The position numbers were made by a program. Shown here one piece after another: positions 6,001 through 10,593 of a DNA stretch of 10,593 nt (the stretch's first letter is position 1; every line of letters starts with the position of its first letter). This DNA comes from a virus (Duplodnaviria; Heunggongvirae; Uroviricota; Caudoviricetes): the IMG/VR virus record IMGVR_UViG_2698536408_000006; one strand, given 5' to 3'.

Positions 6001-9000
6001 GGTCGCCACAGCAACACGTCTCTGGCGCACTGACGGTTTCATCGTGGGTGTCGGTTATAAATTCTGATTAGCCAGGTAACACAGTGTTATGACAGCCCGC
6101 CGGTTCAGGCGGGCTTTTTTGTGGGGTGAATATGGCAGTAAAGATTTCAGGTGTACTGAAAGACGGCACAGGAAAACCGGTACAGAACTGCACAATCCAG
6201 CTGAAAGCAAAACGTAACAGCACCACGGTGGTGGTGAACACGCTGGCCTCAGAAAATCCGGATGAAGCCGGGCGTTACAGCATGGACGTTGAGTACGGTC
6301 AGTACAGCGTTATTCTGTTGGTGGAAGGATTCCCGCCGTCACATGCCGGGACCATCACCGTGTATGAAGATTCCCGACCCGGTACGCTGAATGATTTTCT
6401 CGGTGCCATGACGGAGGATGATGCCCGTCCGGAGGCACTGCGCCGTTTTGAGCTGATGGTGGAAGAGGTGGCGCGTAACGCGTCCGCGGTGGCACAGAAC
6501 ACGGCAGCCGCGAAGAAATCAGCCAGCGATGCCAGCACATCAGCCCGTGAGGCGGCAACCCATGCGACTGATGCTGCAGATTCAGCACGTGCAGCCAGCA
6601 CGTCAGCCGGACAGGCCGCTTCGTCGGCTCAGTCAGCGTCTTCCAGCGCAGGAACGGCATCAACAAAGGCCACTGAAGCCTCAAAAAGTGCTGCCGCTGC
6701 AGAGTCCTCAAAAAGCGCGGCGGCTACCAGTGCCGGTGCGGCGAAAACGTTAGAAACGAATGCGGCAGCGTCACAACAATCAGCAGCCACTTCTGCATCC
6801 ACCGCGACCACGAAAGCGTCAGAAGCTGCCACCTCAGCCCGGGATGCGTCGGCTTCAAAAGAGGCGGCAAAATCATCAGAAACGAACGCATCATCAAGCG
6901 CCAGTAGCGCAGCTTCCTCGGCGACGGCGGCTGCAAATTCTGCGAAGGCGGCCAAAACGTCCGAGACGAACGCCAGGTCTTCTGAAACGGCAGCGGGACA
7001 GAGTGCCTCAGCTGCGGCAGGCTCAAAAACAGCGGCTGCGTCGTCTGCCAGCGCCGCGTCAACAAGTGCCGGGCAGGCCTCAGCCAGTGCCACCGCCGCC
7101 GGAAAATCGGCAGAAAGCGCCGCATCATCCGCTTCAACAGCCACAACGAAGGCTGGCGAAGCCACTGAGCAGGCCACGGCAGCAGCGAGGTCAGCTTCCG
7201 CAGCGAAGACATCCGAAACGAACGCGAAAGCGTCGGAAACCCGTGCAGAATCCTCAAAAACGGCTGCCGCATCGTCCGCCAGTTCGGCGGCGTCATCGGC
7301 ATCATCGGCGTCTGCTTCAAAAGATGAGGCGACCAGACAGGCGTCAGCAGCGAAGGGCAGCGCCACGACGGCATCCACGAAGGCGACAGAGGCTGCTGGT
7401 AGTGCGACGGCAGCAGCTCAGAGCAAAAGTACGGCGGAATCTGCAGCAACGCGCGCTGAGACAGCGGCAAAACGGGCAGAGGATATTGCATCCGCCGTGG
7501 CGCTTGAGGATGCGAGCACGACGAAAAAGGGGATAGTACAGCTCAGTAGTGCGACTAACAGCACTTCCGAGTCACTGGCGGCAACACCAAAAGCCGTTAA
7601 GGCCGCGTATGACCTGGCTAACGGGAAATACACCGCACAGGATGCAACGACAGCACAGAAAGGGATAATCCAGCTAAGCAGCGCGACCAACAGCACGTCT
7701 GAAACGCTGGCGGCAACGCCAAAGGCAGTAAAAGCAGCCAATGACAATGCTGAGAAACGTCTGCAGAAAGATCAGAACGGTGCGGATATCCCTGGCAAAG
7801 ACACCTTTACGAAAAATATTGGTGCCTGCCGTGCCTTCGGTGGGTCAGTAAGCACAACAACAGGAAACTGGACGACTGCACAGTTTATCGAGTGGCTGGA
7901 TTCTCAGGGAGCATTTAACCATCCATACTGGATGTGCAAGGGTTCCTGGTCTTATGGCAATAATAAAATCATTACTGATACTGGCTGCGGTAATATTCAT
8001 CTCGCCGGAGCTGTCATTGAAGTAATGGGGATAAAGTCAGCGATGACGATCCGCATTACCACTCCGACCACATCCAGCGGTGGCGGAACAACCAACGCCC
8101 AGTTTACCTATATTAATCACGGAACAGATTATTCACCTGGCTGGCGAAGGGACTATAACTCCAGAAATAAGCCAACGGCATCAGAGATCGGGGCGCTACC
8201 GTCAGGTGGAACAGCAGTATCATCAGTTAATCTGGCTTCAAAAGGTCGGGTAGCCGCGCTGACAGACAATACGCAGGGGGCAGCAGGTCTTGAGTTATAC
8301 GAGGTGTATAACAACGGATATCCAACAGCGTATGGAAATATCATTCACCTGAAAGGGATGACAGCCGTTGGCGAAGGTGAGTTACTCATCGGCTGGAGTG
8401 GTACAAGCGGTGCTCATGCTCCGGCATTTATTCGTTCACGACGGGATACGACCGACGCAAACTGGTCGCCGTGGGCGCAGCTTTACACCTCGGCTCATCC
8501 TCCTGCAGAGTTTTATCCAGTCGGTGCACCAATCCCGTGGCCATCAGATACCGTTCCGTCTGGTTATGCCCTGATGCAGGGGCAGACTTTTGACAAATCT
8601 GCTTACCCGAAACTTGCAGCCGCTTATCCGTCAGGCGTGATCCCTGATATGCGTGGCTGGACGATTAAGGGCAAGCCCGCCAGTGGTCGTGCCGTATTGT
8701 CTCAGGAACAGGATGGCATTAAATCGCACACCCACAGCGCCAGCGCATCCAGTACGGATTTGGGGACGAAAACCACATCGTCGTTTGATTACGGCACTAA
8801 ATCCACGAATAACACCGGGGCGCATACGCACAGTCTGAGCGGCTCTACAAGTTCAGCTGGGGCCCACCAACATAGTCAGACTGGGCCCAGAACGAATAGC
8901 GGGAGTCAACCTACTGGAATGTTTCCGGCAGGGAGTACTCAAGTTAGCGGGACTAATCAGGTTGGTATCAGTGGCTCATTAACCAGTGGCACCTCCCAAT

Positions 9001-10593
9001 GGGTAGGTAAATCATCTTCAGAAGGAAACCATACACACTCACTGTCCGGCACAGCAGCATCTGCGGGTGCACACGCGCATACTGTCGGTATTGGTGCTCA
9101 TACGCACTCTGTTGCGATTGGTTCACATGGACACACCATCACCGTTAACGCTGCTGGTAACGCGGAAAACACCGTCAAAAACATCGCATTTAACTATATT
9201 GTGAGGCTCGCATAATGGCATTCAGAATGAGTGAACAAGCACGGACCATAAAAATTTATAACCTGCTGGCCGGAACTAATGAATTTATTGGTGAAGGTGA
9301 CGCATATATTCCGCCTCATACAGGTCTGCCTGCAAACAGTACCGATATTGCACCGCCAGATATTCCGGCTGGTTTCGTGGCTGTTTTCAACAGTGATGAG
9401 TCATCGTGGCATCTCGTTGAAGATCATCGGGGTAAAACGGTTTATGACGTGGCTTCCGGCGACGCGTTATTTATTTCTGAACTCGGCTCATTACCGGAAA
9501 ATGTCACCTGGTTATCCCCGGAAGGGGAGTTTCAGAAGTGGAACGGCACAGCCTGGGTGAAGGATACGGAAGCAGAAAAACTGTTCCGGATCCGGGAGGC
9601 GGAAGAAACAAAAAACAGCCTGATGCAGGTAGCCAGTGAGCATATAGCGCCGCTTCAGGATGCTGTGGATCTGGAGATCGCAACGGAGAAAGAAACCTTG
9701 TTGCTGGAAGCTTGGAAAAAGTATCGGGTGTTGCTGAACCGTGTTGATACATCAACTGCACCGGATATTGAATGGCCAGTAGCACCTATAGGGTAAATTC
9801 GTAATGATTACCTAAATACGTTATTCTTTTGTTAAAAAAGTGATTTTGCTATAGGTAGGGAGTATGTTCTTGGATTAAGAATAAAAAATCGCCATGAAAG
9901 AGCTTCATGGCGAGTACATAAACGTACAAAATGTGATGAAAGTAGAGTGGCGTAAGCCACTATATTAAGATATGACAATAGCGAAGAAAAGTAAATAACA
10001 TTTTATGGACGTTTAATTGTTAATTATAAAAACTAGAGTGCCCGATATTGTTTATCTTGCTTTAAAATAATGTACTCAAACCAAATTTTTGAGCTAAAAG
10101 CTCAAATAATATAAATGCAATAATAATGTTTAATAAGACAATTAGCTTGCTTTGTATTTTCATTTCGGAATACTGTTAAGTAACTTTGATGACCCTAACA
10201 ATAGATCGGAATTTTCTTAGAGTCAATGGTCACTGTTTTTGCTTGCAAAGCAAATGTTTTGGTGGTTATAAGTCGTCTTAATATAGTCACGCATGCAACT
10301 TGTTCCATGCGGAGATTAAAGATTGGAATATAACGCGAAGATGGAATTAAATTACATTTGCAATAATTAATTTATTATTACTCAATAATTACCGATATTA
10401 TTATTGTAAATTAATCATTAGAATGCAAAAAGAAATGTAACGGCAAAATAAGAGGACGATAGCTGAGAAAAAAGCGTGCTTTCCCAATCTGGGGCAAATC
10501 ACGTCTGAATGACACCTGAAAACAGGTGGTAGCCTCAAGAAGGCTGGTGATGCTGCCAACTTACTGATTTAGTGTATGATGGTGTTTTTGAGG

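Follow-up and report, generated by a model that had tools for sequence, protein, structure and literature searches.

The distal tip of the T4 long tail fibre is a six-stranded antiparallel needle formed by three gp37 chains, and histidines from all three chains hold each of the seven iron atoms that lie along its axis (Islam et al., 2019; PMC6957217). The side tail fibre (Stf) of Ur-lambda is structurally homologous to gp37 and binds OmpC, and a model of the full fibre was published in 2025 (PMC12617516). That the fibres of lambda and T4 are related was noticed in 1983 and exploited from 1989 to 1996 (references in PMC3157838 and PMC11338833), and the C-terminus of T4 gene 37, together with gene 38, is regarded as lambda-derived (PMC3157838). 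Here we examine the stf gene of IMG/VR virus record IMGVR_UViG_2698536408_000006 (Caudoviricetes), a stretch of 10,593 nucleotides (nt) that is called the window below, and in particular the histidine repeats near the end of that gene. What the region encodes is very probably the distal, receptor-binding end of a side tail fibre of lambdoid type, with a tip that belongs to the T4 gp37/lambda Stf needle family.

The gene and the parts of its product that make up the tip are the following, with HxH denoting a histidine-x-histidine motif.

6126-9215, plus strand: stf, the side tail fibre gene (stop codon included), 1029 amino acids (aa), a single uninterrupted open reading frame (ORF) from the ORF list
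8523-8666, plus strand: Collar domain, aa 800-847 (Pfam PF07484, E = 7e-12, 45.6 bits for a cut-off of 24), aligned to gp37 in 2XGF
8727-8873, plus strand: putative outgoing needle strand with HxH 1-3, aa 868-916, aligned with gp37 H883/885, H915/917 and H929/931
8874-9029, plus strand: hypervariable "head" between HxH 3 and 4, aa 917-968, from the homologue alignment and allele comparisons
9030-9134, plus strand: putative returning needle strand with HxH 4-7, aa 969-1003, aligned with gp37 H966, H980, H989 and H998
9135-9212, plus strand: conserved C-terminal segment, aa 1004-1029, with 87% mean identity in homologues and near-identical in T4 gp37 and lambda orf-314

The product is assigned to the tail fibre family PHROG 295 (E = 3e-244), and HxH occurs in it exactly seven times, at aa 868, 900, 914, 969, 983, 992 and 1001 (nt 8727-9134). 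The histidine pairs of the first three are 868/870, 900/902 and 914/916, and the seventh lies in the context IGSHGHTIT. An earlier description made from the DNA alone (the sequence-only reading) had placed an HxH repeat array at the Stf C-terminus, and in this it was right: there are seven motifs, the flanks of all seven agree with the contexts it listed, and the protein ends as it said. The interval that it assigned to the array, 8718-9145, corresponds to aa 865-1007; its first base is in frame, its last falls inside a codon, and every motif lies within it, while the C-terminal peptide quoted with it falls just outside and reaches 9212. Serine, threonine and glycine account for 74 of the 143 residues in this interval, and all 14 histidines in the last ~170 residues of Stf are inside HxH motifs. 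When the whole of Stf was shuffled, the mean was 0.45 motifs and the maximum four, so that seven were reached in 0 of 20,000 shuffles; shuffling the His-rich last 165 aa by themselves gave a mean of 1.1, with seven reached in 4 of 200,000. The Pfam model PF03335 (Phage_fiber, a 14-aa repeat) matches the HxH units in five stretches (E = 6.4e-8, 32.4 bits for a cut-off of 20). Stf is a plain member of both this family and PF07484, with no difference noted. Two further ORFs under the array, 8631-8831 (minus strand) and 8653-8838 (plus strand), were dismissed as mechanical ORFs within a strongly supported coding frame.

A phmmer search of PDB sequences with the last 271 aa of Stf retrieved the T4 gp37 tip, entry 2XGF (gp37 785-1026), at E = 4.5e-84 and 62% identity. 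The match spans residues 38-271 of the query, which are the last 234 aa of the protein, and residues 28-242 of the chain, and so runs from the collar through the final residue; the title of the entry is that of a needle-shaped receptor-binding tip. In a three-way alignment of Stf, T4 gp37 and lambda orf-314, which is the C-terminal portion of lambda Stf, seven of seven HxH motifs stand in register with gp37 H883, H915, H929, H966, H980, H989 and H998, and the spacings between them equal those of gp37 (32 and 14 outward; 14, 9 and 9 on the return). The likeness to the T4 HxH fibre tip proposed in the sequence-only reading is thus borne out, and nothing was found that contradicts homology with gp37. 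The two tips also share the collar, near-identical C-terminal 45 residues and a gp38/Tfa-type gene downstream. They differ in the head, which comprises 34 aa in T4 gp37 and 52 aa in Stf and is 19% identical, and in what lies outside the tip, which is T-even in T4 but lambdoid and Mu-like in Stf. The crystal structure of the gp37 tip and its iron sites were reportedly described by Bartual and colleagues in 2010, and the boundaries of the gp37 collar, needle and head follow that description.

Homology, motif register, conservation pattern and gene arrangement are read directly from the data presented here, and a mechanism can be proposed by carrying over the trimer, the metal binding, the dependence on Tfa and the role in adsorption from homologues. 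Because of the 62% identity and the perfect motif register with gp37, the needle architecture may be extended to Stf. Three Stf chains would trimerise and, beyond the collar (aa ~800-847), each would run outward through aa 868-916 with HxH 1-3, take part in a small head in which the chains intertwine (aa 917-968), and return through aa 969-1029 with HxH 4-7. The outgoing and returning strands of the three chains would together make a six-stranded antiparallel beta needle. Each HxH motif, present three times, would place six imidazoles around one octahedral metal ion on the three-fold axis, and the seven motifs would then hold seven ions per trimer (Fe in the T4 crystal). By analogy with gp37, both trimerisation and metal binding of the Stf tip are expected. 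Folding of the tip would need the Tfa protein encoded immediately downstream, the lambda counterpart of T4 gp38, and the hypervariable head would touch an outer-membrane receptor in a fast, reversible first adsorption before the J protein binds its own receptor.

Conservation among homologues agrees with such a division of the tip. Exhaustive searching of 1.84 billion representatives with HMMER brought up 1794 relatives at E <= 0.001, 265 of them at E <= 1e-30; motifs were counted in the 140 listed proteins that contain the start of the collar, and conservation was assessed in 122 with a complete C-terminus, at the 50% clustering level. Between collar and C-terminus most homologues have five to eight HxH motifs, seven being the commonest number (55 of 140), and the protein ends in YIVRLA in 107 of the 140. 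Across the 122 homologues HxH 1, 2, 5, 6 and 7 are 99-100% conserved, with motifs 5-7 at 100%, and the collar shows 86% identity. The motifs that adjoin the head are less well kept (HxH 3 in 47% and HxH 4 in 70%), and the segment between them has a mean identity of 11% and 45% gaps. This is the pattern of a conserved, presumably metal-stapled scaffold that bears a hypervariable candidate receptor-contact tip. The sequence-only reading had made its case depend on similarity to metal-binding fibre tips and on conserved histidines, and both were clearly found, in the homology to 2XGF and in motifs 1, 2 and 5-7. Kinship of Stf/Tfa with gp37/gp38 has been known since the 1980s-1990s and the HxH iron sites since 2010, and Pfam families exist for the collar and for the repeat. 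The region shows every sequence-level hallmark of the gp37/Stf needle-tip family that was examined and is an ordinary member of it, of a structure type already described and with little novelty, and its practical value is annotation.

The head allele is the only uncharacterised part of the region. When the tip and tfa were compared by megablast with 50,697 phage records, matches of 92-97% came in two pieces that skipped ~15% of the query (85% coverage), and the part skipped was the head only; a blastn search of the same records with the head (8840-9060) gave no match. Of 5426 complete E. coli genomes, 25 match the head over at least 80% of its length, and in 24 it is found with 100% identity. 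At the protein level (tblastn), the nearest phage heads are those of the T4-like phages slur03/slur14, UGJNEcP1 and mar005P1, at ~60% over 66 aa. These are virulent myoviruses whose gp37 has the closest head found in any sequenced phage, 56% identical over the head proper in slur14, where gp37 carries eight HxH motifs. The comparison with other stf alleles that the sequence-only reading had suggested gave heads 25% identical in lambda orf-314 and 29% identical in mEp332 Stf. Since the heads of T4 and lambda are only 19% and 25% identical to that of the window, the OmpC/lipopolysaccharide (LPS) specificity of these phages is not transferable to it. By its variability the head would be the receptor-contact tip, and we suggest, tentatively, that its 52 residues may be directed at a receptor, or at some variant of one, other than the OmpC/LPS of T4 and lambda. 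Were that so, it would represent a ready-made specificity cassette swapped between temperate and virulent phages. The tip splits precisely into the conserved, putatively metal-stapled scaffold and the 52-residue variable head, and the boundary between them offers a natural cut for host-range engineering, for instance of lambda- or T4-based delivery particles.

The same data bear on whether the HxH-coding blocks matter mainly as DNA, that is, as "His boxes" at which heads are swapped by recombination, instead of as metal ligands. Recombination at such boxes was reportedly proposed by Tetart and colleagues in 1998. It would fit the two-piece phage matches that leave out just the head, the lack of a phage DNA match for the head between flanks of 92-97% identity, the nearest heads being found in virulent T4-like phages while the remaining gene is lambdoid, and the mosaic of lambda, Mu and T4-like parts of which the gene is composed. 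The histidines are, however, kept at the protein level in homologues of 50-60% identity, and their counterparts in T4 are iron ligands, among them H929/H931 of gp37, where alanine substitution of iron-binding histidines abolishes plaque formation (PMC6957217). A role as DNA and a role as ligands are compatible, so that the former would be an addition and not a replacement; that it should be the principal one seems unlikely to us, and the motifs are better read as putative metal ligands of a needle.

With regard to the function of this tip, the side fibres of Ur-lambda accelerate adsorption 10- to 30-fold via OmpC and leave plating unchanged, the binding of J to LamB being the essential step (PMC12617516). 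In the window, the C-terminal receptor-binding domain of J is encoded just upstream (Pfam Ig_GpJ_C), and the gene order is J C-terminus, lom, stf, tfa, which is also the order in complete genomes. The sequence-only reading had called the tip "the functional host-range determinant" of the prophage. A receptor-binding tip is well supported, but the definite article overstates the case, because Stf is accessory and J essential in Ur-lambda and a J domain is encoded upstream here as well.

Two features describe what follows the fibre gene.

9215-9796, plus strand: tfa, tail fibre assembly protein (Tfa) of 193 aa (Pfam PF02413 Caudo_TAP, E = 4.6e-44; PHROG 105)
9203-9217, plus strand: stf/tfa junction, with GAGG at 9203-9206, the stf stop TAA at 9213-9215 and the tfa start ATG at 9215-9217

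Tfa shares 92.7% identity with lambda Tfa and 31% with T4 gp38 (E = 5e-20), and NCBIfam holds no model that matches either Stf or Tfa. At the junction the stf stop and the tfa start share one base in the sequence TAATG, with GAGG 8 nt ahead of the ATG. Lambda, where orf-314 ends and orf-194 starts at 21973, and mEp332 are annotated with an equal one-base overlap, whereas T4 gene 38 begins 28 nt after gene 37. The overlap and GAGG in the window, and the overlap in lambda and mEp332, make coupled translation of stf and tfa plausible and conserved. The sequence-only reading was accurate in placing a Tfa/gp38-type gene directly downstream; the "translational coupling" that it added was drawn solely from the TAATG overlap and GAGG, and is best worded with that reserve. 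Needles of gp37 have been made by co-expression with gp38 and gp57A (PMC6957217), and by analogy folding of the window Stf is expected to depend on Tfa.

The downstream protein might instead be the tip adhesin itself, leaving the HxH needle as a docking platform only. Some fibre chaperones, of the Mu and P2 type, remain bound at the tip. In T2-type phages gp38 is indeed the adhesin, but in T4 adhesin function comes from the C-terminal extension of gp37 and gp38 is a chaperone (PMC3157838), and it is to this chaperone-type gp38 and to lambda Tfa that the window protein is related, as a member of Caudo_TAP. The hypervariable part, moreover, sits in Stf itself. We consider an adhesin role of Tfa very improbable, and take the receptor-binding part to be the Stf head.

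Several observations weigh against the needle-tip reading or against its present use. An AlphaFold2 (AF2) monomer of the last 234 aa, built from a 44-sequence alignment, was a poor model, with a predicted local distance difference test score (pLDDT) of 58.5 and a predicted template modelling score (pTM) of 0.22. Low confidence of this kind can be explained because an obligate intertwined, metal-stapled trimer is expected to model badly as a single chain. Foldseek returned 2XGF as the sole significant match of the monomer (E = 7e-11), but with a TM-score of merely 0.31, so that the match is largely sequence-driven and adds little to the sequence match. Shorter natural variants do without HxH 3 and 4, and which metal would be bound (Fe in gp37) is not predictable from sequence. 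In T4 gp12 the metal is Zn. Two more observations concern expression. The lom gene directly upstream of stf (5551-6033) has, relative to the copy at 2689-3288 (199 aa), an 83-bp deletion between CTGGCG direct repeats that shifts the frame and cuts the protein to 160 aa, and the same 160-aa lom is called in the finished chromosome CP000038.1. This chromosome is 100% identical to window 3945-9338 and encodes an identical Stf protein, but its tfa (11090-11606 of the stretch examined) has lost 65 bp (window 9337-9401) and is split by the frameshift into ORFs of 46 and 150 aa. To judge from this deletion, at least one lineage has retained the fibre gene but lost its chaperone.

It could be argued on these grounds that the gp37-fold tip is a relic in a decaying, non-inducible prophage, with no fibre made and no present host-range role. 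An IS1 insertion sequence (IS) ~750 bp downstream of tfa would fit this, as would the best full-length stf match, in E. coli strain 2A, which is annotated as frameshifted. On the other hand, stf (3090 nt and repetitive) and tfa are both uninterrupted in the window, and the upstream tail module of CP000038.1 is complete, with tape measure, M, L, K, I and full-length J. The lom gene, moreover, is not known to be needed for virion assembly. On balance we find a relic somewhat doubtful, though a serious alternative, and it would concern present activity only, without conflict with the structural explanation. The "intact fibre" of the sequence-only reading holds for the stf and tfa ORFs, which are whole, but does not imply an active prophage, as lom is frameshifted, IS elements flank the region and tfa is deleted in CP000038.1. 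The reading of the region as a gp37-type needle tip stands apart from this question.

Upstream of the tip, the fibre has the following parts.

6132-6533, plus strand: N-terminal tail-attachment domain, aa 3-136 (Pfam PF08400 phage_tail_N, E = 1.4e-71)
7515-7763, plus strand: two Phage_fiber_2 repeats, aa ~464-546 (Pfam PF03406, E = 6e-37, two stretches, the best at aa 464-504), the end of the second being taken from the reading of the sequence
7599-8300, plus strand: shaft segment akin to the phage Mu fibre protein S/S', aa 492-725 (PDB 8JU3 and 5YVQ)

The Ur-lambda tail fibre chain 9E7M aligns with residues 3-96 (E = 8e-52), and the Mu-like segment matches 8JU3 over aa 541-725 (E = 5e-86) and 5YVQ over aa 492-570 (E = 4e-16). 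As read from these matches and from the tip, the fibre is a typical mosaic with a lambda-type N-terminus, a Mu S/S'-like shaft and a gp37-type tip. With the Ur-lambda fibre (orf-401/orf-314) it shares the N-terminal attachment domain, the collar and needle scaffold, the C-terminus and the order J-lom-stf-tfa. It differs in that lambda orf-314 has eight HxH motifs and an extra FDYGTK repeat, compared with seven motifs here, and in having a longer Ala/Ser-rich shaft and the Mu S-like insert; lambda Stf has a length that we take to be 774 aa, compared with 1029 aa for the window Stf. Residues ~137-460 (6530-7510) form a long, repetitive Ala/Ser/Thr-rich shaft that accounts for the 1029-aa length, and the length differences between Stf and its closest alleles fall in it. 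On both strands, the other frames of this shaft also contain long ORFs that are spurious (e.g., 6629-7378, 6724-7491 and 6760-7536). The Mu S-like part holds a Cys-bearing, globular-looking segment (GACRAF...CKGSW...DTGCGNIH).

The window itself is a scaffold, with 68 Ns at 1329-1396 and a single N at 3908 that is centred in a perfect palindrome with 47-nt arms (3861-3955). A block consisting of the J 3' end, lom and the stf 5' end is present twice, at 1397-3454 and 4238-6234, with 75-97% identity between the copies. In CP000038.1 the block is single-copy; only the second window copy is contiguous with stf, and the first matches that chromosome at 89-95% only. A true tandem duplication of J-lom-stf is unlikely, given that the joins consist of N runs and the 47-nt-arm palindrome and that the finished genome has one copy. 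The apparent duplication is probably the product of two different prophages joined by the assembler. The first stf copy (3310-3678) encodes the N-terminal domain only (122 aa, phage_tail_N, E = 1.5e-36), and at 3765-3905 come codons 1-47 of a transposase of the IS21 family (MLSREDFYMIKQMRQQG...; NCBIfam E = 3.4e-5, far short of the curated cut-off). The appearance is that of a fibre gene disrupted by an IS and lying at the end of a contig.

An identical 1029-aa Stf is also encoded in CXFU01000079.1 (153-8119 of the stretch examined), where it is preceded by two stf-like ORFs of 359 and 357 aa and separated from tfa by a fibre-like ORF of 715 aa, with sitDCBA following. Either fibre genes stand in tandem there or the assembly has collapsed. 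Downstream of tfa in the window, 9797-10593 comprises ~750 bp of AT-rich DNA without an ORF of 60 aa or more and ends in the left end of IS1 (GGTGATGCTGCCAACTTACTG... from ~10546). Copies of the AT-rich stretch occur in 280 complete E. coli genomes; after the one in strain 104 come IS1A, an AraC-family regulator and ybhB-bioA.

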